Positions 1,537 to 64,000 of a stretch of DNA of 64,000 nt are shown here, piece after piece (position 1 is the stretch's first letter; the number at the start of each line of letters is the position of its first letter). Source of the DNA: an uncultured bacterium (GTDB lineage: Bacteria > Patescibacteriota > Patescibacteriia > CAIQCM01); assembly GCA_963708045.1 (NCBI GenBank), contig OY970181.1, positions 131,740-195,739 on the forward strand, written 5' to 3'. The position numbers and the translations under genes were made by a program. Under the pieces are notes generated by a model that was not told the origin of the DNA, did not search any database, and was given only the letters and a program-made list of their open reading frames with translations.

Positions 1537-1570
1537 TCAACTTTTAACTATTAACTGTTAACTTTTAGGT
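1537..1570. repeat. Family-B repeat unit (AACTTTTAACTATTAACTGTTAACTTTTA)
   Basis: Matches the AACTTTTAACTGTTAACTTTTAAC word seen at six other loci. Lies just upstream of the malic enzyme start. Confidence 0.5.
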
Positions 1571-3112: not shown

Positions 3113-3403
3113 ATGCTTAGCATTAGATTAACCCGCGTCGGAAAAACCAAAGAGCCTTCATACCGGCTTATTGTTTTAGATAAACGAAAAGACCCATGGG
3201 GCGACTACCTGGAAAACCTCGGCACCGTGAATCGCCGTGGCAAAGAAAAATCATACAAATTGAACGCCGACCGCATTAAATACTGGATTTCCAAAGGCGC
3301 TCAGCCCACTAACCCAGTTTGGAATATGTTGGTTGACCAAAAAATCGTTGTTGGTTCCAAACGCAAGGCGCACACGGGACATAAGGTTGAAGCGGCGAAA
3401 TAA
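3113..3403 (+). CDS. rpsP: 30S ribosomal protein S16
   Basis: MLSIRLTRVGKTKEPSYRLIVLDKRK...: canonical S16 N-terminus. 96 aa. Confidence 0.9.
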   Translation: MLSIRLTRVGKTKEPSYRLIVLDKRKDPWGDYLENLGTVNRRGKEKSYKLNADRIKYWISKGAQPTNPVWNMLVDQKIVVGSKRKAHTGHKVEAAK

Positions 3404-3432
3404 CTTTTAACTGTTAACTTTTAACTTTTTTA
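3404..3432. repeat. Family-B repeat unit
   Basis: AACTTTTAACTGTTAACTTTTAACTTTTTT immediately 3' of rpsP. Confidence 0.5.
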
Positions 3433-3947: not shown

Positions 3948-4090
3948 CAATTCTATGTTAGATTTTCCGCCTGTGGCTGAATGACATGGCGCTGGCCAAA
4001 ATTTCAACAATCTTGCTAGGCTTGTTGAGACTAACGCCAGAAAATGCAGGTTCAACTCCTGTCGGGCGGACTAGTTAGTACCTTCTTATA

Positions 4091-4208
4091 GAAGCCGTAG
4101 CTCAATGGTGGAGCAACACGTTTCTGGAGGCGTATGCTTCCAAGGTCAGTAACCAAAAGTTATTGATCTGATTCGTGAAGGTTGTAGGTTCAACTCCTAT
4201 CGGCTTCG
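4091..4208 (+). tRNA. tRNA with about 45-nt insertion in anticodon loop (candidate anticodon UCU, Arg)
   Basis: Perfect 7-bp acceptor GAAGCCG/CGGCTTC, D-arm GCTC-AATGGTG-GAGC, T-arm GTAGG-TTCAACT-CCTAT. Anticodon stem ACACG...CGTGA encloses a 52-nt loop that begins TTTCTGG and holds two internal hairpins. Confidence 0.6.
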
Positions 4209-4328: not shown

Positions 4329-4461
4329 GAGGCAGTAGCTCAATTTGGTAGAGCGCCGGAATGTCACATTAAACCAAACTTTTGTAACGTTGGTCACGAG
4401 ATAGTGGGTTCAAGGTTTGTTTTAATGCCGGAGGTTACAGGTCCGACTCCTGTCTGCTTCA
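4329..4461 (+). tRNA. tRNA with about 59-nt insertion in anticodon loop (candidate anticodon GUC, Asp)
   Basis: Acceptor GAGGCAG/CTGCTTC (one G-U pair), D-arm GCTC-AATTTGGTA-GAGC, T-arm ACAGG-TCCGACT-CCTGT. Anticodon stem CCGG(A)...(G)CCGG encloses a 66-nt loop that begins ATGTCAC, close to the E. coli tRNA-Asp loop CTGTCAC. Confidence 0.55.
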
Positions 4462-5880: not shown

Positions 5881-5921
5881 GAATGAATATCTAATTTCTA
5901 ATACTTAATATCTAATCCGAT

Positions 5922-6767
5922 CTATGGAAAAGAGATCTGTCTATTTGTTGACGATGAAATGAGAATTTTGGGGTGCGACAAAACGCTGGCGGCATAATCT
6001 TTTTGTATCGCTTGCGCGGTTAGTGCTTTGGCATAGATCCGGACATTATCAAAATTACCCCAAAAATAATTTGTTGCCACATAACGACCGATCTCCGGCG
6101 CCCCCGTCCCCAAGAACGGACTTGACGGAGAATCGTTCGCGACGAGCGCGCCATCACGGTAAATGCTGCGCTTGTTAGTTGATCGGTTGTAAGTACAAGC
6201 CCAATGATGCCAATTCGTGTCCGTATAGGCAACCGTGTCCAGATCGTTTGAGTAAAAGGCGCAGGTAAAAGCATTCGTCTGCCTGAAACCGACGACCATC
6301 ATAGTGCTGGCACCTACACTTCCCAGCGAAAAGGCGATATCCAATCTATTTATTGCGTTGCGTTTCGCCCAAAAGGAAACCGTGAACGAGTTTGAGGCAA
6401 ACTCGGTGATCGTTCGCGCGGTGGAGGCATATTGGCTTGCGCCGTTCAGGCTAAGTGAACACCCTTTCCCCGATGGCGAATCAGACGACCATTGCGGAGA
6501 ACCGACGGGGGTTCCAATATTTCCACCCCCCGAAGAATCAGCGACGGTTGTGGCGGGAATGCCGACGCCTGTGCAATCGTCAAAATCCCACTGGCCTAAA
6601 ATTTCATCTCCAGCTCCATCAAGAACACTTCTTTCAAAAGATTGCCCGGCCGCAATTTTTGCTTTATCCCGCGCACTGCCAAGCGACACCACCGCGATTG
6701 ACGAAAGAAGGCCGACGATGGCAATGACGACGAGAAGTTCAATTAAGGTGAAGGCGCGACGGGTCAT
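5922..6767 (-). CDS. type IV pilin-like protein with LamG-like domain
   Basis: MTRRAFTLIELLVVIAIVGLLSSIAVVSLGSARDKAKIAAG...FDNVRIYAKALTAQAI. Paralog of 5014-5880. Confidence 0.75.
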   Translation of the reverse strand: MTRRAFTLIELLVVIAIVGLLSSIAVVSLGSARDKAKIAAGQSFERSVLDGAGDEILGQWDFDDCTGVGIPATTVADSSGGGNIGTPVGSPQWSSDSPSGKGCSLSLNGASQYASTARTITEFASNSFTVSFWAKRNAINRLDIAFSLGSVGASTMMVVGFRQTNAFTCAFYSNDLDTVAYTDTNWHHWACTYNRSTNKRSIYRDGALVANDSPSSPFLGTGAPEIGRYVATNYFWGNFDNVRIYAKALTAQAIQKDYAASVLSHPKILISSSTNRQISFP

Positions 6768-6946: not shown

Positions 6947-7609
6947 ATGAAGATAGACTTTGTTTCAATTTTTCCGGAAATGTTTGGGACTTATTTTAAT
7001 GAGTCCATTATGAAACGCGCGGCGGAAAAGCGTCTGATTAAAGTTAAGGCGCACGATTTGCGTAAGTGGGCATCGGGCAAGCACCACAAAGTAGACGATC
7101 GCCCATTTGGTGGCGGCCCCGGAATGGTGATGATGGCGGAGCCGTTTGCGAAAGCGGTTAAAGAGCTAAAAGTTAAAAGTTTAAAGTTAAAAGTTCGTGT
7201 TATCCTAATGTCTGCTTCGGGAAAAACCTTCACTCATAAAGATGCAGTACGGCTTGCCAAGTACAAACACTTAATCTTCCTCTGCCCGCGCTACGAAGGC
7301 GTGGATGCGCGCGTGGAAAAATTTGTTGATGAAAAAATTTCTATTGGCGACTATGTTTTAACCGGCGGCGAACTCCCCGCCATGGTCGTGGCTGACGCAG
7401 TCGTGCGTCATATTCCCGGCGTCCTTGGCAAAGCCGAATCGCTCACCGAAGAATCGCATACAATAGAAGGTGTTACTGAATATCCGCAATACACGCGGCC
7501 GGAAGTTTTTGGCAAACAAAGAGTGCCTGCGGTTTTGCTTTCAGGCGATCATGCGAAGATAGCCGCGTGGAGAAAGAAAAAGATGGGGCAACGAATACCT
7601 AATATCTAA
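6947..7609 (+). CDS. trmD: tRNA (guanine37-N1)-methyltransferase
   Basis: IDFVSIFPEMF, DDRPFGGGPGMVM and SIGDYVLTGGELPAMV are hallmark TrmD (SPOUT) motifs. Confidence 0.9.
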   Translation: MKIDFVSIFPEMFGTYFNESIMKRAAEKRLIKVKAHDLRKWASGKHHKVDDRPFGGGPGMVMMAEPFAKAVKELKVKSLKLKVRVILMSASGKTFTHKDAVRLAKYKHLIFLCPRYEGVDARVEKFVDEKISIGDYVLTGGELPAMVVADAVVRHIPGVLGKAESLTEESHTIEGVTEYPQYTRPEVFGKQRVPAVLLSGDHAKIAAWRKKKMGQRIPNI

Positions 7610-7629
7610 TGTCTAATATCTAATCCGTT

Positions 7630-8287: not shown

Positions 8288-8675
8288 AAAATCAGCTATT
8301 TTTACCATCCTAAATGATAGTAACACCAAACGCCTGTTTTTTCAATTTATCCACAGTACCTCCCCACCCCTTATGGCTATTGACGGATTATTCTAAATCG
8401 TTTATTATTGCCACATACTAATCACAACTTCTTTTCGCTTGTTTTTAGAAGAAAAAAGAGTTGAACCTAAAATCGCTTGGTTCCACTCTTTTTTCTTCCT
8501 GAAACGTTTTGGGAAGGGACATTGACAACTCAATCGTGAACCAAAAATTTCTTTCTTTGAAAGAAGAGAGAGATCCCCGGATAATAAACATTCAAAAACA
8601 ATATAGTCATTAAACACATAAGTCTGATGACTCTGGTTGAGTCCACTTCTCCTTAGGGAGATAGGGATTTCTTCT

Positions 8676-10179
<1,504 letters not shown>

Positions 10180-30138: not shown

Positions 30139-30609
30139 ATGATTACTTTTCATAATCCAACTGACGGCGAGCAAACTTTCAATCAGATGATTGACGGCAT
30201 TGTTTCGTTCGCGAGCGAAGAGTCTAAAGACGGCTATTCGCTGATGGTTGGGACGGACTCCGAAATGTCCGACGAAACTTCGTTTATCACCGCTGTTGTT
30301 ATTCATCGCCACGGCAAAGGTGGCCGATACTACTGGGCAAAGATGATAAAGCCACGGTTTCCAACGCTCCGCGATCGCATTTGGCAAGAAGCGATTTTTT
30401 CCATTTCCATTGCCAAGTCTATTGTTGAAGAACTCGCCAAGCGGGAAATAGAAAATAATAATGTTCAAATTCACGTTGACATTGGCGAACACGGACCAAC
30501 GAGAATGTTGATTCAAGAAATCACCGGCTATGTCCGCGGCAATGGTTTTGCCGTTTACATTAAACCCGAATCTTGCGCCGCTTCGTCCGTGGCCGATCGC
30601 CTTACTTAG
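30139..30609 (+). CDS. RNase-H-like fold protein of the YkuK/DUF458 type (tentative)
   Basis: LMVGTDSE...FITAVVIHRHGKGGRYYW resembles DUF458. First ATG of the ORF (30106) lies inside a hairpin motif, so start moved to 30139. Confidence 0.4.
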   Translation: MITFHNPTDGEQTFNQMIDGIVSFASEESKDGYSLMVGTDSEMSDETSFITAVVIHRHGKGGRYYWAKMIKPRFPTLRDRIWQEAIFSISIAKSIVEELAKREIENNNVQIHVDIGEHGPTRMLIQEITGYVRGNGFAVYIKPESCAASSVADRLT

Positions 30610-30636
30610 GGTTTAGGGGTTAGGGTCTAGGGTTTA
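30606..30636. repeat. telomere-like G-rich microsatellite (TTAGGG/TTTAGGG variants, about 4.5 units)
   Basis: ttagggtttaggggttagggtctagggtttag, overlapping the stop codon of 30139-30609. Confidence 0.6.
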
Positions 30637-30739
30637 GTGACGCCGATCCCAAAACCTCTTCTGGTCTTGGCAAAAAGAAATATAAATAGTAATATCTCTT
30701 CTTAGTTATTTGAATATTAAACAAGTTCGTATCTAGCGA

Positions 30740-33732: not shown

Positions 33733-34284
33733 TTGAGAGGGATGAACATGACCACCGTTAGTGAATTATTCATACAAATGATTGCGGCTCAATGCAAGAG
33801 AACTGAAACGATATTTAAGATGGTCGTTGACTACACCAAACCTTTTAGTAATTGCCACTACCTTACAGAGTTTGGCGGCTATGATTGCGTTGATATGGAA
33901 AGATTCTGGCTTGCCAGTACTGGTAAATCAGAAAGGGTTGAGATCGAGATGCAGTATGTAACCATTCTGCGCACCGTCACCACAGAGGAGGTGCTTAACG
34001 AGATGGAAAAGTGCGGCCTTCGCCCGGCAAACTTTAGAGAGTTGATGACTTTTGATGAAGTCAATCCATATGCTGTATCACACCCAGAATACGATCCAAT
34101 TGTCGCTCTTGGCGTGTCACAAGATGACGTAAAAAACGACAACTACACCTGTATTTGCAGGGATGAGGATGGTTGTCACCATATCAAATCGTATTACAGA
34201 GGATTCGGCCGACGGCGTAATGAATGGAACGGTAAATATGTTAGGTTCCTTGCCGTCCGAAAGGAAAGCGAAAAAGCTGTCTAG
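33733..34284 (+). CDS. hypothetical protein
   Basis: 183-aa ORF. GAGAGGG SD. Start may be the third ATG (33748). GGAGGTCTGA...TCAGACCTCC hairpin downstream. Confidence 0.45.
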   Translation: MRGMNMTTVSELFIQMIAAQCKRTETIFKMVVDYTKPFSNCHYLTEFGGYDCVDMERFWLASTGKSERVEIEMQYVTILRTVTTEEVLNEMEKCGLRPANFRELMTFDEVNPYAVSHPEYDPIVALGVSQDDVKNDNYTCICRDEDGCHHIKSYYRGFGRRRNEWNGKYVRFLAVRKESEKAV

Positions 34285-34544
34285 ATCGCGACAACGAGTA
34301 GTGACGTTCGTACATCATAAATCGGAGGTCTGACCGCACATCAGACCTCCCCCAACTTGAGACGATCATAATTACAATCTTTTCTCAATCGTAAAAAGAT
34401 TGTAACGGTTGGTCGGATGAAGAAGGGGAAAAAATTACTTCCAACCCCAACTAAATTTCGCTCGGCAGAAACCTACCTTCTATTGGTTTGTGAGAGGAGA
34501 AAAACACTTCAATATCGCACAGTAATATATTTTAAAATGATTAA

Positions 34545-34775
34545 CAACTTGCCCTCCCCTTAGGGTAAGGGGAGGTAGGAGGGGTTACGAACGCCGCATC
34601 AATGTTTGTGCGGTATAAAATATAGTTTTCAAAACTCCATTGGTATTTTTAAAACATCATCGTCATAGACATATTCAGAACTCTCCCTACCCTCCCTTTT
34701 ACCAAAGGGAGGGCTAAGATGCTTTGATGCTAAATGAAACTTTATCTAAAATACGAGGCCAGGAGATTTCTCATC
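34545..34775. repeat. Family-C composite hairpin repeat element
   Basis: Shares ggtaaggggaggtaggaggggttacgaacgccgcatcaat... and ctctccctaccctcccttttaccaaagggaggg blocks with 52370-52935 (opposite orientation) and 61478-61760. Confidence 0.55.
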
Positions 34776-35267
34776 CTACCCTCTCCCATTTTTGGGCGAG
34801 GGTGTTAAGACGGCCGCTGCATATGCGATCGCGAGGGCGTCGGCGGCGTCGTCGGGCTTGGGTATCTTGTCCAATTTAAAAATAATTTTTACCATCTGCT
34901 GCATTTGTTTTTTGTCGGCACTGCCGTAGCCGGTTAAGGATTGTTTCACTTGTCCCGGACCGACCTCAACAACTTTAGCGCCGGACTCGGAACACAAAAG
35001 TAAAATAACCCCGCGTGCCTCCCCGACCGCGGTCGCGGTTTTTACATTTTTTTGGAAAAAAAGTTTTTCCACACCAATAACTTCAGGTTTGTATTCACGG
35101 ATGATCTTGCCCAGGTCGGTTTTAATCATCTGCAAGCGCAAACCATGATCGTCAGTTTTGGGTGTTTCAATGCAGCCGTATGCTACGGCTTGTATTTTGC
35201 TGCTAAGTTTTTCGACAACCCCATAGCCAACGCGGCCAATGCCGGGGTCGATGCCGAGAATTACCAT
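34776..35267 (-). CDS. ruvC: crossover junction endodeoxyribonuclease RuvC
   Basis: MVILGIDPGIGRVGYGVV... matches RuvC catalytic N-terminus. 163 aa. Confidence 0.85.
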   Translation of the reverse strand: MVILGIDPGIGRVGYGVVEKLSSKIQAVAYGCIETPKTDDHGLRLQMIKTDLGKIIREYKPEVIGVEKLFFQKNVKTATAVGEARGVILLLCSESGAKVVEVGPGQVKQSLTGYGSADKKQMQQMVKIIFKLDKIPKPDDAADALAIAYAAAVLTPSPKNGRG

Positions 35268-35300
35268 AACTTTTAACTATTAACTGTTAACTTTTAACTT
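35268..35300. repeat. Family-B repeat, left arm of inverted pair flanking the four-helix-bundle gene
   Basis: aacttttaactattaactgttaacttttaactt. Reverse complement of the arm at 35657-35691. Confidence 0.6.
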
Positions 35301-35642
35301 GCCGATTACGGCGTTCAATATTCTTTGGACTTCGTGCAATACTTCAAATGATTTTTCGTATTGATCTTTATTACCATATATCTCAATCGCCAAAAGCATT
35401 TGCGTTTCTAATTCCGCCGAGGATCCATACGCAATATATAGAAACTGAATGTATTCTTTTAAATTATGTCTTTGTTTTCCTTCGGCGATATTTGAAGGAA
35501 TTGAAACAGCCGCTCGTCTCATTTGGGAAGACAATCCGTATGTTTCTTGCTTGGGAAAGCTATCGGTTATCCGATAAATTTCTTTTGCCAAATCCATTGA
35601 TTTAGACCAAAAAGTTAGCTCCCGAAATGACTTTACATACAT
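35280..35642 (-). CDS. four-helix-bundle protein (23S rRNA intervening-sequence protein family)
   Basis: ...LSSQMRRAAVSIPSNIAEG...YIAYGSSAELETQ... is the signature of the TIGR02436 / S23-like four-helix-bundle family. 120 aa. Confidence 0.7.
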   Translation of the reverse strand: MYVKSFRELTFWSKSMDLAKEIYRITDSFPKQETYGLSSQMRRAAVSIPSNIAEGKQRHNLKEYIQFLYIAYGSSAELETQMLLAIEIYGNKDQYEKSFEVLHEVQRILNAVIGKLKVNS

Positions 35643-35656
35643 ACGAAGCCGGCAAC

Positions 35657-35691
35657 AAAAGTTAAAAGTTAAAAGTTAACAGTTAAAAGTT
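35657..35691. repeat. Family-B repeat, right arm of inverted pair
   Basis: aaaagttaaaagttaaaagttaacagttaaaagtt. Confidence 0.6.
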
Positions 35692-35695
35692 CGGC

Positions 35696-36400
35696 TTACT
35701 CCGCATTCGTATAAACTTCGTTCACATCCTCGAGCTCATCAAGCGCTTCCAAAAGCGCGTCGAGATTCCCCTGTTCCGCATCGGGAACGGGGATGCGGTC
35801 TTTGGGGATCCATTGCCAGCCGGCGAATTCTACTTCTTCGGCTATGTTGTTTTTTACTTTTTCTAAATTATCCAAGTGTGTGTAGACCGTATAGCCATCG
35901 TCTTCATAAATAACATCGTCAGCACCAGCGTCAATTGCTTTTAATTCAAACTCATCATTTTGCGCTTTTCCAAATCGCAAAACTCCACGATGCTGAAACA
36001 TCCATTGAACACTGCCGGCGCCGGCGAGCGAGCCGGTGTGAACGGCGAGCGCGTGTTTTGTTTCGGCAACGGCCTTGTTCCTATTTGATGCCAAGCATTC
36101 AATAAGAATGGCGACGCCGCCCGGACCATAGGCTTCATAAAGCAAAGTTTCCAACTGTTCCGCTTCCGCGCCCGCACCAACCGCTTTGGCAATGGCGCGA
36201 TCAATGGCGTCTTTGGTAACCCCGGCTTGTTTGGCCGTATCCATTACTAAACGCAATTTAAAATTCATCGCGGGATCCCCGCCGCCGTTTTTTGCCGCCG
36301 TTGAGATTAGCTTTAACATTTTACTGCCGACAATCGCTTTGGCACGATCGGCCGATCCTTTGGCGCGTTTTACTTTTGCCCAATGGCTATGCTTTGACAT
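35696..36400 (-). CDS. yebC: YebC/PmpR-family DNA-binding regulator
   Basis: MSKHSHWAKVKRAKG...NGGGDPAMNFKLR... is the canonical YebC N-terminus. Start moved to the MSKHSHW Met. Confidence 0.85.
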   Translation of the reverse strand: MSKHSHWAKVKRAKGSADRAKAIVGSKMLKLISTAAKNGGGDPAMNFKLRLVMDTAKQAGVTKDAIDRAIAKAVGAGAEAEQLETLLYEAYGPGGVAILIECLASNRNKAVAETKHALAVHTGSLAGAGSVQWMFQHRGVLRFGKAQNDEFELKAIDAGADDVIYEDDGYTVYTHLDNLEKVKNNIAEEVEFAGWQWIPKDRIPVPDAEQGNLDALLEALDELEDVNEVYTNAE

Positions 36401-39747: not shown

Positions 39748-39849
39748 GACGGAATATCTAATGTCTAATTTCTAATCCGACTAGTGAGTGATAATTTGTT
39801 TATTGTTTTTAGTGCGATTTTATTTTCACCACTTTCTTTAACGAATGTG

Positions 39850-40769: not shown

Positions 40770-40911
40770 ATACAGATAACATATACCTCTTTCCGGCCAA
40801 GTTCAAGGATATGCAAAAACTCCCCCGTTTTATTGAGGGAGTTTTTGTTTCTATTTGCTATTTAGCCATTTGCCACGAGCCACGTGCTACGTGCCACAAG
40901 CCACGCGCCAA

Positions 40912-44816: not shown

Positions 44817-44846
44817 AGGGTTTAGGGTTTAGTGTTTAGGGTTTAG
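44817..44846. repeat. telomere-like (TTTAGGG)n microsatellite filling the rpoB-rpoC spacer
   Basis: gggtttagggtttagtgtttagggtttag. Overlaps the rpoB stop codon. Confidence 0.6.
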
Positions 44847-48115: not shown

Positions 48116-48493
48116 GGTGGTTTGATCTGTTTAATTATTAGACGCTGGAGATTAGAGGTTTGAAATTAGAGTGAAGAAGTTCGTCGTCCGTCTTCTAACA
48201 TCTAGTCTCAAATCTCTAATCTCAATTTTTTTAGAATACAAAAAACCGCCCACGCCTCCAGCCGTCGTTCAATCGGGCCGTGAAGCATTGGGACAGGGTA
48301 AGATTTTAATTGGGGAGAAGTTTAGGCATGCGCGCGGATCGCAGGCCTTATCTGCCGCTTACGGCAAGCAGTAAAGCAAGCGAGCGTGGTTGTACAGCGG
48401 ATAAAACCGCTCCGGATAGCCCGAGCGGTTCTAAATCTGTATTTCTTGCTTTAAAGCTACCTCCGGACGGAGGTTTTGTCAACACTCTTTACG

Positions 48494-48580
48494 AACTTTT
48501 AACTTTTAACTTTTAACTTTTCAAAAAATGGCTAATTTTATACTTTTTTCTTCACTAAAAGTTAACAGTTAAAAGTTAAC
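48494..48580. repeat. Family-B inverted-repeat pair (AACTTTTAAC x4 ... AAAAGTTAACAGTTAAAAGTTAAC) with about 35-nt spacer
   Basis: Left arm 48494-48521, right arm 48557-48580. Predicted long hairpin upstream of rpoB. Confidence 0.55.
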
Positions 48581-48590
48581 ACCTCAACGG

Positions 48591-48619
48591 TTGACATTTT
48601 ATCCACAACGTGCTATAGT
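48591..48619 (+). promoter_or_regulatory. strong sigma70-like promoter (TTGACA - 17 nt - TATAGT) with no protein gene downstream
   Basis: -35 TTGACA at 48591-48596, 17-nt spacer, -10 TATAGT at 48614-48619. Next about 350 nt lack a convincing ORF and run into a family-A repeat. Confidence 0.45.
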
Positions 48620-48772
48620 ACTTTGTTAATGATTCTCTGAGGAGAGAGTTATCTGACAAACGCTTTAGCCTTTCTTGGGAGAGAAAAGGCTGATTCCAGA
48701 CTCTGGAGAGAGTCAAAAAGGCATTCTTGTTCAGCAGGAGATGCTTCTTTGTTTATTACTCTTATGTAACGG

Positions 48773-48869
48773 CGTCATCCCGAGGATACGAGGGAACTCA
48801 AAGTCTCAAAGAAAACTTAGAGCTTCCTCGCCCTGGACAAAACGTCCTTACGGGCTCGGAATGACGGCG
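48773..48869. repeat. Family-A palindromic repeat
   Basis: GGCGTCATCCCGAGGATACGAGGG...CGGGCTCGGAATGACGGCG. Identical to the copy at 49598-49696. Confidence 0.65.
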
Positions 48870-48975
48870 AGAAAAAGAGATTAGATGTTAGAGATTAGAT
48901 TTTAGAAGACGGAGGACAAACTTCTACATTCAAAGCTCAAATCTCTAAGATCTATTATTCTTTCCAATAAAGTTC

Positions 48976-49696: not shown

Positions 49697-50260
49697 AAAT
49701 ATTTCAGCGTTCGTTTGGGGGAGGAGGGTGTCTGCGATCCCGAAGGGCAATCGTAGCACTGGTGCCAAGGTTAGGAGAATCGGACTTGTCTGATTCGGCC
49801 CAACCAGAAACGCCGCTCTTATGTCGAGCTTGCTCAACAACAACTACTTCCCCAAACGAGCGCCTGAAAATGCATAAGCGTCCTTTGATGGTCTTTGCCA
49901 TACCGATAAAGATGACAAGACAAAGGCAACATGCAAAACAAAACCCATTCTGGCTACGCCAACGCGGCTAATGGTCAAGTCTCCGCACGGACTTGGGCGT
50001 GTCACACGGTGGCGGCGAAGGTGAAACGATTTTCACTTCGCCGCCACCGCTACCGATCTAAGGAATGTTCACGTGAAAATTCTTTTGATCGGTTCAGTAA
50101 CAACTGAATCAAATGCACCTTGAATCAAAACGGACTGATTTGGGGGTTGGAGGGGCCCTATAATTATTGAACATCTTTTTTGTTCGCCATAGGCCAATTT
50201 ACCAACCCCAACATCAGTCCGTTTTTGTATCACAACCCAGAAAACCAGAGGAGATTCCAG

Positions 50261-50752: not shown

Positions 50753-51198
50753 CGCCGAACGCTGGCGCGGAACAGACAACCCTGTCTGTTCCGCGTCTCA
50801 ACTTTATGAGCGAAACCAGATTCCTTATTACTTGCCCATATTCTAAGGTGTAAAATACATAAACGAGGATCAATTTAAAAAATTTTTCTCGTCATCAAAA
50901 GTTAATCGTTAATAATTACACAGCATCACATTAAATCGCGATCGCGATTTAATGTGATGCGAGGGTTTAATCTATTACTGTTAGCTTAGACGACCTTGGT
51001 TGCTTAAAAGATTTTTTAAATTGCTCCTTGTCCGCTGTCCAATAATTTCTTCCAACTTTTACCGATCGGATAAAGTCGGAAGAAAATAAACAGCGACCAG
51101 AAACGAGCAAAAAATTTCGTATACGGACAAAAACATTTTTCGGGAAATGTTTAGTCCAAAGAACCTTCACATCAATTCCCGAATACGGAGACAACATC

Positions 51199-52369: not shown

Positions 52370-52935
52370 GATAGAGCGAACGAACTCCCCCTACCCCCTC
52401 TTTTGCAAAGAGTGGGCAAAGACTGGTTAAATCTCACAAGGCACCATTATAAAAAGAGGGGGATAAAATCGCGAAAAAATCTTAGTCCTCCCTTTGGTAA
52501 AAGGGAGGGTAGGGAGAGTTCTTAACGTATCTATGACGATAATGTTTTAAAAATACCGATGGAGTTTTGCAAACGATCTTTAAAACTGTGCAAAAATTGA
52601 TGCGGCGTTCGTAACCCCTCCTACCTCCCCTTACCTCCGACGTTTTGACCTCTTAAAATAATTTGGAGGTCGGAGTCCGATCAACATCGGACCTAAGGGG
52701 AGGAAAAGATTTGTTGTACGTTTTATCAGATTTTTTCTATACCCATAGTTTTAACCTTCTCTTTCGGCTCGAGACTGATCTCCGCCAAAGGCGGATCTAC
52801 CCTCGGGTATGACACCTTTTGCGTAAGGGCAAAAGATCTCATGGCTACGTATTTTAGATGAAATTTCATTCAAACATTAAAGCATCTTTCCCCTCCCTTA
52901 AGGTAAGGGAGGGGAAAGTGGGTTATGAGTGTATG
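52370..52935. repeat. Family-C composite hairpin repeat element
   Basis: gaacgaactccccctaccccctcttttgcaaagagtgggcaaagactgg, cttagtcctccctttggtaaaagggagggtagggagag and revcomp-of-34560 blocks. Confidence 0.55.
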
Positions 52936-55469: not shown

Positions 55470-55859
55470 ATGTCCCACTCCTTCCCGCCACAGCCCATTA
55501 AAAACAACCAACTCTTCGCCTCACACCGAGCGAAGAGTGTTGTTTATATCGTTGGTTTTTTTATTTTGGTCGTGGCGATAATTGTTTGGGAAATAATCCG
55601 CGTGACCGCGCCGCCGCTGCTTATTATCAACAATCCGCCGGACAATCTGTTGTCCAACCAAGCGACGATTGTCGTTTCCGGCCGCGCCGCGCCCAATTCA
55701 ACCGTTGTCATTAACGACGAATTTACCGCGACCGATCTTTCGGGAAACTTTAACGAAACTTTGGACTTGCGCACCGGACTAAATGTCATTACTATTAGTG
55801 CGTCCAAACGCTTTGCCAAACCGAATGTTATATATAGGAGGGTGGTGGTGGCGAAATAA
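55470..55859 (+). CDS. hypothetical membrane-anchored protein
   Basis: N-terminal TM helix VVYIVGFFILVVAIIVW. 129 aa. Confidence 0.45.
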   Translation: MSHSFPPQPIKNNQLFASHRAKSVVYIVGFFILVVAIIVWEIIRVTAPPLLIINNPPDNLLSNQATIVVSGRAAPNSTVVINDEFTATDLSGNFNETLDLRTGLNVITISASKRFAKPNVIYRRVVVAK

Positions 55860-55942
55860 CTTTTAACTGTTAACTTTTAACTTTTCTGGTAAAATCAATG
55901 GTCTAAGAAGTTAAAAGTTAAAAGTTAAAACCTAAAAGTTAA
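55858..55942. repeat. Family-B inverted-repeat pair with about 24-nt spacer
   Basis: Left aacttttaactgttaacttttaactttt, right agttaaaagttaaaagttaaaacctaaaagttaac. Lies between 55470-55859 and recA. Confidence 0.55.
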
Positions 55943-61477: not shown

Positions 61478-61760
61478 TGTACCGAGAAACGAACTCCCCC
61501 TACCCCCTCTTTTGCAAAGAGTGGGCTAAGACTGACTACAGATCATAAGTCTGCGATTATACAAAGAGAGACGATAAAAGGCGCGAAAAATCTTAGTCCT
61601 CCCTTTGGTAAAAGGGAGGGTAGGGAGAGTTCTGTTTTATTACGTTAGAACGAAACGAACTCCCCCTACCCCCTCTTTTGCAAAGAGTGGGCTAAGACTG
61701 GTTACAGATCATAAGCACATCATTGCGCAAAGAGGGGGCGAATATTTTTGTACATTTTAT
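61478..61760. repeat. Family-C composite hairpin repeat element (two tandem units)
   Basis: Two units starting cgaaacgaactccccctaccccctcttttgcaaagagtgggctaagactg at about 61480 and about 61652. Confidence 0.55.
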
Positions 61761-63097: not shown

Positions 63098-63101
63098 AAT
63101 T

Positions 63102-63174
63102 AACTTTTAACTGTTAACTTTTAACTGTTAGGCTCCGTCCGTCCTAAAAGTTAAAAGTTAAAAGTTAACAGTTC
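63102..63174. repeat. Family-B inverted-repeat pair with about 16-nt spacer
   Basis: Left aacttttaactgttaacttttaactgtta, right aaaagttaaaagttaaaagttaacagtt. Lies between efp and epmA. Confidence 0.55.
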
Positions 63175-63175
63175 G

Positions 63176-64000
63176 TCAGCTAAATATTTCCGATGCTGGA
63201 AAGAGGAGAACGTCGTCAATATTTTTTGCGCCGGTAAGCAACATCACGAGCCTGTCCACGCCAAGCGCGTTTCCGGCGGCGGATTTTATTTCGCCGAGTG
63301 CGGCGAGCAAATCTTCGTCAAGCGGCGGAACGTCTTTGCCGAGCCCTGCGCGTTCTTTTGTTTCTTCTTCAAAGCGACGGCGTTGCTCTGCCGGATTAAC
63401 CAATTCGGAAAACGCGTTGCATAATTCCATTCCGCCAGCGTACGCTTCAAACCGTTCGGCATAGCGCGGGTCATCTGTTTTTGCCCGAGCGAGCGCCGCC
63501 ATTTGAATTGGATAATCGTAGAGAATTACCGGCTCGTCCTTTCCAAGTTTAGACTCAATTTCGGTTAGAAAAATCTTAAAAAAACAATCGTCAAACGAGT
63601 CGTTCGGCGAAACGGCATATCCGCGTTCGGTTGCCGACGCAGCCATATTATCACGGGTTAATATTTGGTCAAGATTTAGCCCGATTTTAGCAAAAGCATC
63701 TTTTACCGAAAGACGTTTCCATGAACCATGAAACATGAACCATGAACCATTAACCGCTTGTGCGCAATATTTAACTAATCGCTCTGTATCATCCATCATT
63801 TTATTGTAGTCAGCATCAACACGATACCACTCTAGCATTGTAAACTCTGGGTTATGCGTCGCGCGGTCGCCAAAGCGTTTGCCAAACGGTTCTTCGTTTC
63901 TAAAAACTTTTCCCAGTGAAAAAATTTTGTCCATTCCGGCGGCCAACATTTTTTTGCAAGAAAATTCGGGCGAGGTAATTAAATATGCTGGTTGTTTTTT
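63176..64000 (-). CDS. epmA: EF-P lysine34 beta-lysyltransferase (EpmA/PoxA, class-II LysRS paralog), N-terminus beyond window
   Basis: Class-II aaRS motifs: FRNE, EFTMLEWY, GGMELCNAFSEL, GLGVDRLVMLLTG. Frame stays open to the window edge past the first Met at 63949. Confidence 0.75.
   Translation of the reverse strand, partial: KKQPAYLITSPEFSCKKMLAAGMDKIFSLGKVFRNEEPFGKRFGDRATHNPEFTMLEWYRVDADYNKMMDDTERLVKYCAQAVNGSWFMFHGSWKRLSVKDAFAKIGLNLDQILTRDNMAASATERGYAVSPNDSFDDCFFKIFLTEIESKLGKDEPVILYDYPIQMAALARAKTDDPRYAERFEAYAGGMELCNAFSELVNPAEQRRRFEEETKERAGLGKDVPPLDEDLLAALGEIKSAAGNALGVDRLVMLLTGAKNIDDVLLFPASEIFS

Follow-up and report, generated by a model that had tools for sequence, protein, structure and literature searches.

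The window considered here, a 64-kb stretch of DNA from a member of Patescibacteria (CPR, short for Candidate Phyla Radiation), carries a gene for a four-helix-bundle (4HB) protein of the '23S rRNA intervening sequence (IVS) protein' family between yebC and ruvC, bracketed on both sides by inverted arrays of tandem heptamers. The element is read here as an IVS-type 4HB cassette residing outside rRNA, in which the two arrays would form a stem that loops out the open reading frame (ORF), joins the yebC stop codon to the ruvC start codon, and is probably cut by ribonuclease III (RNase III); the probability assigned to this reading is roughly 0.55. The evidence that carries it consists of the anatomy of the element, its exact placement between a stop and a start codon, conservation of both arms through mirrored changes, and recurrence of the same arrangement among sampled 4HB loci. 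The recurrent link of 4HB genes with heptamer repeats appears to be undescribed. Beyond a remark on the Coxiella IVS, no study tying 4HB genes to heptamer arrays was found in a literature search that was itself incomplete, and an earlier description is possible.

The Cassette Between yebC and ruvC

All parts of the locus lie on the minus strand, in the order yebC, 5' arm, spacer, 4HB ORF, 3' arm, and ruvC. A first-pass annotation of the DNA had placed a 120-residue protein gene of the IVS family between the two neighbors, and profiles for PF05635/TIGR02436, RuvC, and YebC agree with it. The yebC gene (TACO1/YebC family, Pfam PF20772 and PF01709; 35696-36400) ends in a TAA stop codon at 35696-35698, 4 nt ahead of the 5' arm (35657-35693), which in mRNA sense reads CG followed by an array of five AACUUUU/AACUGUU heptamers (period 7, 5.0 copies by Tandem Repeats Finder, TRF) and holds a 28-nt core common to other copies in the window. 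A 14-nt spacer, GUUGCCGGCUUCGU (35643-35656), separates this arm from the ATG of the 4HB gene (35280-35642, supported by profile searches and substitution rates); the spacer is found in one compared locus (L112) and is missing in three others (L110, L113, and L116), where the arm adjoins the ATG. The 3' arm (35267-35300), an AAAAGUU-type array of 4.9 copies in mRNA sense, encodes the final six residues of the 4HB protein (KLKVNS) and its stop codon. Its final base is the one just ahead of the ATG of ruvC (PF02075; 34776-35267), which at 35265-35267 stands directly after the arm. As an inverted repeat the arms span 33 nt each (35268-35300 and 35659-35691) and are 94% complementary. The arms are inverted copies of each other as first described, although not perfect ones, and each is made up of tandem heptamers rather than a unique 33-mer.

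In more distant Patescibacteria (L008, L009, L023, and L025) yebC abuts or overlaps ruvC, which bears out the earlier statement that the two genes are normally adjacent; the cassette has therefore been inserted at a junction that is otherwise tight. Among the genes profiled in and beside the element, none encodes an integrase, transposase, or other recombinase, and in all four inverted pairs of the window the flanks share direct words of at most 4 nt, giving no sign of a target-site duplication. No Rfam family matches any arm or pair at the gathering threshold. A function of the 3' arms as intrinsic terminators was ruled out, since no T run follows them.

The 4HB Protein

The encoded protein matches PF05635 (23S_rRNA_IVP) over profile positions 1-106 of 106 (E = 3.5e-36; 124.1 bits against a cut-off of 33.8) and TIGR02436 (E = 4e-36; 123.5 bits against a cut-off of 24), and its closest solved structure is PDB 2GSC, XCC0516 of Xanthomonas (E = 1.5e-23). 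The family motif GxxRxxxSxxxNxxE (PMC3936711) is present as YGLSSQMRRAAVSIPSNIAEG, its positions being invariant in a 38-sequence alignment, and RxxxSxxxNxxEG is the most conserved 4HB motif, invariant whatever the heptamer. Members of the family are described as homopentameric toroids (Lin 2006, as cited). Among orthologs the ratio of non-synonymous to synonymous substitution rates (dN/dS) is 0.04-0.07 with saturated synonymous sites (dS of at least 1.4), values which indicate that the protein is functional and under strong purifying selection, that the insertion is old, and that the arms have been conserved well beyond neutral expectation.

Matches to bacterial Avd (bAvd) profiles are weak (PF22296, E = 1e-5; NF033474, E = 5.6e-5, 23.4 bits against a cut-off of 80). 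An identity as an accessory variability determinant (Avd) of a diversity-generating retroelement (DGR) was rejected, with scores under the family cut-offs and no reverse-transcriptase domain among the genes characterized around the element, including yebC, ruvC, and an NYN-domain gene; template and variable repeats were not searched for. A 183-residue ORF near the element (33733-34284) has no Pfam match. Membership in a defense system was likewise set aside, as no PADLOC family matched the 4HB protein at E <= 0.01. The most likely source of the published 'CRISPR association' of the family is that its members tend to stand between the genes of operons and next to repeats.

Orthologous Loci and Predicted Folding

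The closest public relative of the window is the metagenome-assembled genome (MAG) 'bacterium nzgw356' (GCA_023246535.1), and the next named relatives, at approximately 60% identity in elongation factor P (EF-P), are Uhrbacteria and Magasanikbacteria. Orthologs of the 4HB gene without flanking repeats, which would have spoken against the first-pass annotation, did not turn up among the loci recovered. At all nine of nine distinct orthologous loci (4HB proteins 73-90% identical) the gene lies directly upstream of ruvC and both arrays are kept, and at some of them a TrmB-family gene stands upstream in place of yebC. The heptamer unit varies by lineage (AACTTTT, AGCTTTT, or AGGTTTT), and every variant is mirrored in the opposite arm, such that AACU/AGUU becomes AGCU/AGCU or AGGU/ACCU. 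RNAalifold applied to the orthologs yields a closing stem of 29 pairs, six of them with changes on both sides.

In the predicted RNA fold of the complete element the arms form the closing stem (-127 kcal/mol, z = -6.7, with 0 of 100 shuffles as good). At the base of this stem lie the bases just past the yebC stop codon and the ruvC AUG, which is itself base-paired at the foot. In the minimum free energy structure, GUUGCCG of the spacer pairs with CGGCAAG at the end of the 4HB ORF and lengthens the stem past the heptamers. The window also holds inverted pairs of the same arrays with no ORF between them, and these too fold into stems (z = -3.8 to -5.2), a check that the first-pass annotation had proposed. 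Folding and conservation demonstrate the geometry of the element, and its role at the RNA level is inferred. One suggestion of the first-pass annotation was that such hairpins are processing sites analogous to the rRNA IVS stems cleaved by RNase III. The anatomy fits (z = -6.7, mirrored changes, and a design comparable to that of Coxiella), with cleavage suggested by analogy.

Inverted Heptamer Arrays at Other 4HB Loci

The same arrangement recurs in a sample of 80 further metagenome 4HB loci whose proteins are 45-59% identical to that of the window. At 72 of these the upstream flank was compared with the reverse-complemented downstream flank, with neighboring ORFs as the control. The median score was 30 at 4HB loci and 14 at neighboring ORFs (n = 72), and scores of at least 24 were reached by 54 of the 72 4HB loci vs. 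3 of the 72 neighboring ORFs (p = 5e-17). Most loci, by eye and by this test, have a heptamer (sometimes octamer) array ahead of the ATG, matched in reverse complement by a second array at the stop codon or past it; the dominant array period is 7, followed by 8. The first-pass annotation had asked whether 4HB copies elsewhere are flanked by the same repeat. Inverted arrays are indeed found, but their sequence is locus-specific, with units such as TAGGGTT, TAGTGGC, CAAGGGT, GACGAGT, and the cyanobacterial short tandemly repeated repetitive (STRR) unit GGGACTG. Units of 5' arms contain TAG in 17 of 37 cases (approximately 16% expected) and are G-rich (G 37%, C 12%); a universal sequence rule to this effect was discarded, as the window and L125 families are exceptions.

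Arms have a median length of 28 nt and a median of 4.3 units, with a peak at 4-5. The 3' arm starts inside the ORF at 41% of loci. The stop codon of the upstream gene lies a median of 4 nt outside the 5' arm and the start codon of the next gene a median of 8 nt outside the 3' arm, and neighbors are co-directional at 53 of 66 loci on each side. None of the 80 loci (0/80) was found inside an rRNA gene in an rRNA search; extra-ribosomal position is therefore the rule in the sampled subfamily, and no oddity of the window. The gene for the close homolog of the crystallized XCC0516 in Xanthomonas campestris occupies the accB-accC junction. GGGAATC-type arrays that include a mirrored variant unit flank it on either side, and its 3' arm is followed at once by the accC ATG. 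Related cassettes (at least 70% identity, same heptamer family) have unrelated flanks in 12 of 14 pairs, a pattern indicating that ORF and arms move or duplicate as a unit on an evolutionary time-scale.

Copies of the Repeat Without a 4HB Gene

The heptamer array of the cassette is dispersed in the window. A three-unit pattern (TTAACTN x3) has 25 matches against 0 expected from 100 shuffles, and TRF gives period 7 with 3.4-5.4 copies across the window copies; the caveat that these might be simple low-complexity A/T repeats is not borne out in the window, given these counts and the fixed core. The 28-nt core, AACTTTTAACTGTTAACTTTTAACTTTT, is fixed across the 5'-arm copies and has a four-unit structure. 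Between the copies at 3400 and 55856 the identity extends to 36 nt and takes in the final codons and the stops of two genes. Gene paralogy was rejected as the source of this identity, the two genes being unrelated. Fixed core and extended identity at unrelated genes together show that the arm is a repeat of set length that is dispersed and has a period of 7 nt inside it, and not a free-running microsatellite.

Three inverted pairs without an ORF, noted as empty pairs in the first-pass annotation, are confirmed, with register-dependent spacers of 10-35 nt (16-35 nt as first given). The pair at 63100-63175 (minus strand; z = -5.2) fills the junction between the poxA-like gene epmA and efp, with a stop codon 2 nt ahead of its 5' arm and the efp ATG 2 nt past its 3' arm. 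A second pair, at 55856-55942 (plus strand; z = -3.8), lies between a gene for a 129-residue protein, the stop codon of which is held by the first unit, and recA, whose ATG lies 10 nt past the 3' arm. The third (48492-48580, plus strand; z = -4.9) is placed between a terminator-like hairpin (approximately 48459-48478) and a strong promoter-like site (48591-48619). The single arms noted earlier are confirmed as well. The stop codon of gene 3113-3403 comes from a 5'-arm-type array at 3400-3432 (plus strand), past which lie a G+C hairpin and a T run, and a 3'-arm-type array at 1537-1570 (minus strand), AAAAGUU in the sense of gene 385-1533, ends 5 nt ahead of the ATG of that gene. Missed in the first pass were a copy inside the trmD ORF (7157-7195, plus strand), translated as VKELKVKSLKLKV in a variable linker, as well as the heptamer nature of the arms and at least four other heptamer families. 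Between the arms of the ORF-less copies lie loops with no relation to one another or to the cassette, and with no similarity to the cassette interior beyond shuffled controls, and an origin as deletion derivatives of the cassette was rejected because no 4HB remnant remains in them. Both the ORF-less pairs and the single arms represent one and the same repeat of approximately 30 nt, present without the gene at other stop/start junctions.

Turnover Among Close Relatives

Genome flanks in relatives were read over up to 20 kb. At the epmA|efp junction the window carries its AACTTTT/AAAAGTT inverted pair, L126 (EF-P identity 95%) a single AAAACCT-type array, L124 and L125 (89%) a single CTAACCC array, and L123 (83%) an array-free 16-nt spacer. 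In L123 the pair upstream of recA is also missing, replaced by a 5-nt spacer, and there are almost no heptamer arrays over 20 kb. ORF-less arrays behave in an insertion-like manner, with fast turnover between close relatives. Cassettes differ among relatives too. L125 has a second, very divergent PF05635 gene that is bracketed by AATATCT-family arrays with the TAATCCG edge known from the window and is missing from the same site in L123, while in L005, a contig of MAG nzgw356, a different 4HB gene (63% identical) follows yebC and is preceded by a TTAGGGN array, a family also present in the window. Each of three heptamer families noted in the clade (AACTTTT, TTAGGGN, and AATATCT) brackets its own distinct 4HB gene. 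In another Patescibacteria MAG (L021, approximately 1555-1650), an inverted pair of units of approximately 8 nt (ACAGGCCG...) follows yebC, and next comes a 4HB gene that is encoded on the other strand; evidently different cassettes have landed beside yebC more than once.

Proposed Mechanism

The cassette fits exactly into the junction formed by the stop of yebC and the start of ruvC. Because it has no obvious promoter of its own and has the same direction as both neighbors, it is most likely transcribed within their operon. In the operon transcript the arms would pair into a stem of approximately 30-45 bp, looping out the 4HB ORF and uniting the stop codon of yebC with the AUG of ruvC at the base. 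This long, near-perfect stem would probably be cut by RNase III, as in 23S rRNA IVSs, freeing a 4HB mRNA and leaving ruvC with a short A-rich leader lacking a Shine-Dalgarno motif; prior to cutting, a ribosome terminating at yebC could open the base of the stem and thereby expose the ruvC start. Bridging or cutting would keep the insertion harmless to the operon, and the bridging of stop and start would explain why insertions are tolerated in pairs as tight as yebC-ruvC, accB-accC, and epmA-efp. Shine-Dalgarno-like motifs precede just 8 of 71 predicted ORFs in the window, many starts being preceded instead by A/T-rich or array sequence, and this rarity fits a leader role for A-rich 3'-type arrays.

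Several observations weigh against the model. Pairing in the transcript and RNase III cutting of this element are predictions, the cutting by analogy with rRNA IVSs, and no RNase III signature was found within the window, the part of the genome covered by the search. Mismatches between arms comprise 48 G-U and 49 A-C, without the G-U excess that selection on the sense RNA would favor, so that complementarity could instead be maintained in the DNA, for instance through conversion of one arm by the other. Not every copy can be an intercistronic processing site. The pair at 48492-48580 is flanked by terminator-like and promoter-like sites, others lie in divergent or convergent spacers, and further arrays are single or inside ORFs (trmD and epmA), where the stem cannot form. 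The model also leaves the role of the strongly conserved 4HB protein unexplained.

Alternative Explanations

A tentative alternative is a partnership like that between repetitive extragenic palindromic (REP) sequences and REP-associated tyrosine transposases (RAYTs), in which the 4HB protein would act in trans as partner to its own family of heptamers and would bind, spread, maintain, or regulate the arrays. The bracketed gene would then be the master copy, with dispersed pairs and single arms as non-autonomous copies or a regulon, and each 4HB variant might recognize its own family, for example as a pentameric ring reading four to five units in RNA or single-stranded DNA. Such a partnership is compatible with RNA processing and draws on architecture and on the family-by-family pairing of gene and repeat. 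RAYT genes are likewise flanked by inverted REPs with dispersed pairs and singletons, the three families of the clade (AACTTTT, TTAGGGN, and AATATCT) each bracket their own 4HB gene, and the GGGAATC unit flanking the Xanthomonas 4HB gene is dispersed approximately 186 times in the genome (PMC4692102). The fixed 28-nt core and the 36-nt identity at unrelated gene ends point to copying rather than local slippage, related cassettes stand in unrelated flanks (12/14 pairs), and of the arrays that share a contig with the 4HB gene but lie far from it, 33% match its family vs. 6% for permuted loci. The peak of the arrays at 4-5 units would suit a homopentameric toroid as cited for the family, yet the score threshold of TRF censors the low copy numbers. 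Moreover, the 4HB protein has no known nuclease, transposase, or nucleic-acid-binding activity, its RxxxSxxxNxxEG motif is invariant irrespective of the heptamer, and co-inheritance of ORF and arms yields the same correlation without interaction. It may be ventured, with equal reserve, that PF05635 proteins are the missing trans-acting partners of bacterial dispersed heptamers (STRR, GGGAATC, TAACTGA-like, and CPR families). If true, a bracketed 4HB gene would be the master of a system that spreads, maintains, or regulates hundreds of junction arrays, rRNA IVSs included.

A somewhat more doubtful possibility is that the arrays act mainly in initiation without Shine-Dalgarno motifs, with the complements after stop codons as anti-leaders and the 4HB gene as one more user, an idea that follows the proposal of MacGregor for the TAACTGA repeats of Beggiatoaceae (PMC4679880). 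The true starts of ruvC, efp, recA, and gene 385-1533 lie 0-10 nt past the end of an array, five other ATGs follow AGATATT arrays at a distance of exactly 5 nt, Shine-Dalgarno motifs are scarce (8/71 ORFs), and at epmA|efp three relatives place three different A/C-rich arrays ahead of the same ATG. A leader role does not account for the bracketing of 54 of 72 4HB genes vs. 3 of 72 neighboring ORFs, nor for pairs in non-transcribed or divergent spacers and arrays inside ORFs, and L123 expresses the same genes array-free. The first-pass annotation had favored another explanation, namely that inverted heptamer pairs are DNA attachment or recombination sites and that the 4HB cassette inserts into an empty pair. 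What survives of it is the insertion-like behavior. In a closely related contig the junction after yebC carries a different 4HB gene with different heptamers, orthologous junctions in relatives (83-95% EF-P identity) have an ORF-less array, lack it, or hold another in its place, and related cassettes occur at unrelated sites. A cassette dropping into an empty hairpin is, however, unlikely. There is no recombinase in or beside the element, no target-site duplication, and no 4HB remnant in the loops of empty pairs; no relative has an empty pair at yebC|ruvC, where distant relatives have abutting genes; the heptamer family accompanies related ORFs across unrelated contexts; and the loaded site has persisted while synonymous divergence reached saturation. 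Neutral slippage, by which the arrays would be slippage-prone simple-sequence repeats (SSRs) adjacent to 4HB genes by coincidence, is highly improbable. Heptamers are cited as the commonest long SSR unit in prokaryotes (Mrazek 2007, as cited in PMC4679880) and copy number does vary among relatives, but slippage would have to produce 25 pattern matches where none is expected, a four-unit structure common to the copies, arms that are both kept with mirrored changes despite saturated synonymous sites, and the 4HB association in the sampled subfamily (p = 5e-17). Both the leader explanation and neutral slippage explain less of the data.

Additional Repeats and Features of the Window

At least four further heptamer families occupy gene boundaries in the window. 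The AATATCT/AGATATT family, with a conserved TAATCCG edge, is found at 5886-5916, 7594-7624, and 39753-39776, with short copies ahead of the ATGs at 6767, 37882, and 55470; in AGATATT orientation it ends exactly 5 nt ahead of five start codons, and in AATATCT orientation it overlaps the trmD stop codon. Two ORF-less inverted pairs of an AGAGATT/AATCTCT family lie at 48148-48223 and 48873-48963 (fold z = -5.2 and -3.9), one of them just upstream of rpoB. Additional families are represented at 30606-30637, 44817-44846, and 40853-40910. A TTAGGGT array overlaps a stop codon, a CCCTAAA array (gene sense) fills the rpoB|rpoC junction, and a GCCACGA-type array follows the rpoC stop ahead of a terminator-like hairpin. 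Within EpmA, the same loop carries in-frame heptamer arrays of different sequence in two relatives, TTCATGG in the window (63719-63755, translated as NGSWFMFHGSW) and CCTACAA in L125 (2383-2413, translated as YNLQPTTYNLT), and L123 EpmA has none.

Other features are separate from the heptamers. A dispersed repeat without relation to the heptamer families, GAACTCCCCCTACCCCCTCTTTTGCAAA, forms inverted pairs with its complement, spaced 24-86 nt, at 52382-52521, 61491-61684, and approximately 34540-34720, just downstream of ruvC. Long palindromes centered on CGATCG or CACGTG are found at 50923-50960, 51043-51088, and 50052-50093. Two tRNA genes (4091-4208 and 4329-4461) have anticodon-loop insertions of 49 and 68 nt that are not heptamer arrays and were not called by ARAGORN; a third interrupted tRNA-like gene may lie upstream (approximately 3950-4070). 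The 16S rRNA gene (8670-10177) is full-length, uninterrupted, and alone, with no match to 23S or 5S rRNA in the 64-kb window. Two apparently non-coding segments, 48230-48478, ending in a terminator-like hairpin, and 48591-48870, which begins with the region's best promoter-like match (TTGACA-17-TATAGT plus TG, 11/12), have no Rfam match at the gathering threshold and may be unannotated RNA genes.

Comparison with Known Systems

Two puzzles meet in this element, the function of a highly abundant protein family with solved structures and no known role, and the question of where the dispersed heptamers, previously described apart in cyanobacteria, Xanthomonas, and Beggiatoaceae, come from and what they do. 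Regular bracketing by the host's own heptamers, together with placement between stop and start codons, provides a concrete testable model, and Xanthomonas is culturable, with a structure (2GSC) and a repeat census already in hand. The arrays also matter for annotation, as stop codons and C-terminal residues come from them, they stand in for Shine-Dalgarno regions, and assemblies break at them.

A functional analogy is offered by the long stems between cistrons of one transcript that are known as intercistronic RNase III hairpins in the phage T7 early region, in lambda, and at rpsO-pnp. Those are unique sequences with internal loops and a gene-free loop, in contrast to the dispersed heptamer arrays described here. 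The Avd proteins of DGRs share a related four-helix-bundle pentamer fold. MITEs (miniature inverted-repeat transposable elements) are similarly small, transposase-free, bounded by inverted repeats, and dispersed in intergenic DNA; inverted arms are present here, but a MITE identity was rejected for want of a target-site duplication, and the arms are tandem arrays and the ORF-less loops unrelated. REP sequences and their inverted doublets (REPINs) with RAYT genes provide a likeness, in that inverted copies of a short repeat bracket a gene, intergenic regions elsewhere contain that repeat singly or in inverted pairs, and each repeat family is paired with its own gene variant. Dispersal of the flanking repeat is seen in the window, L125, and Xanthomonas. 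RAYTs are, however, HUH/Y1 (IS200/IS605-like) transposases, whereas the 4HB protein, which lacks a known catalytic motif, has only the PF05635 and a weak bAvd match in Pfam, and REPs are individually palindromic 20-40-mers, whereas the arms here are tandem heptamers.

Tandem 7-nt units in few copies, mostly intergenic and near gene ends, place the arrays among the bacterial heptamer repeats. The GGGAATC arrays of Xanthomonas, the STRR repeats of the Nostocales (GGGGA(C/T)T), and the TAACTGA repeats of Beggiatoaceae are likewise tandem heptamers of 2-6 or more copies at gene boundaries, often just upstream of start codons without a Shine-Dalgarno motif. In Xanthomonas, approximately 186 GGGAATC arrays, including approximately 70 convergent pairs, were described by Rehm et al., who found no known function (PMC4692102), and the TAACTGA arrays of Beggiatoaceae end just ahead of starts without a Shine-Dalgarno motif (MacGregor; PMC4679880). 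The published studies make no link to 4HB genes, whereas both here and in Xanthomonas the genome's own heptamers bracket a 4HB gene.

The IVSs of 23S rRNA, as in Leptospira and in helix 45 of Coxiella burnetii, share with the cassette an ORF of the same family in the loop, complementary termini, and a long stem of approximately 28 bp or more that encloses the ORF. The Coxiella IVS contains an ORF for the 4HB protein S23p, three or four tandem GACAGAT heptamers ahead of the ATG in strain-variable copy number, and a terminal stem of 28 bp, in the middle of which RNase III cleaves in vitro (PMC4990558). The ORF is decaying in Coxiella and under strong purifying selection in the window. The host of an rRNA IVS is a 23S or 16S helix, whereas the host here is a protein-coding operon junction, and the arms are also dispersed without an ORF, these ORF-less copies resembling ORF-less IVSs or REP elements.

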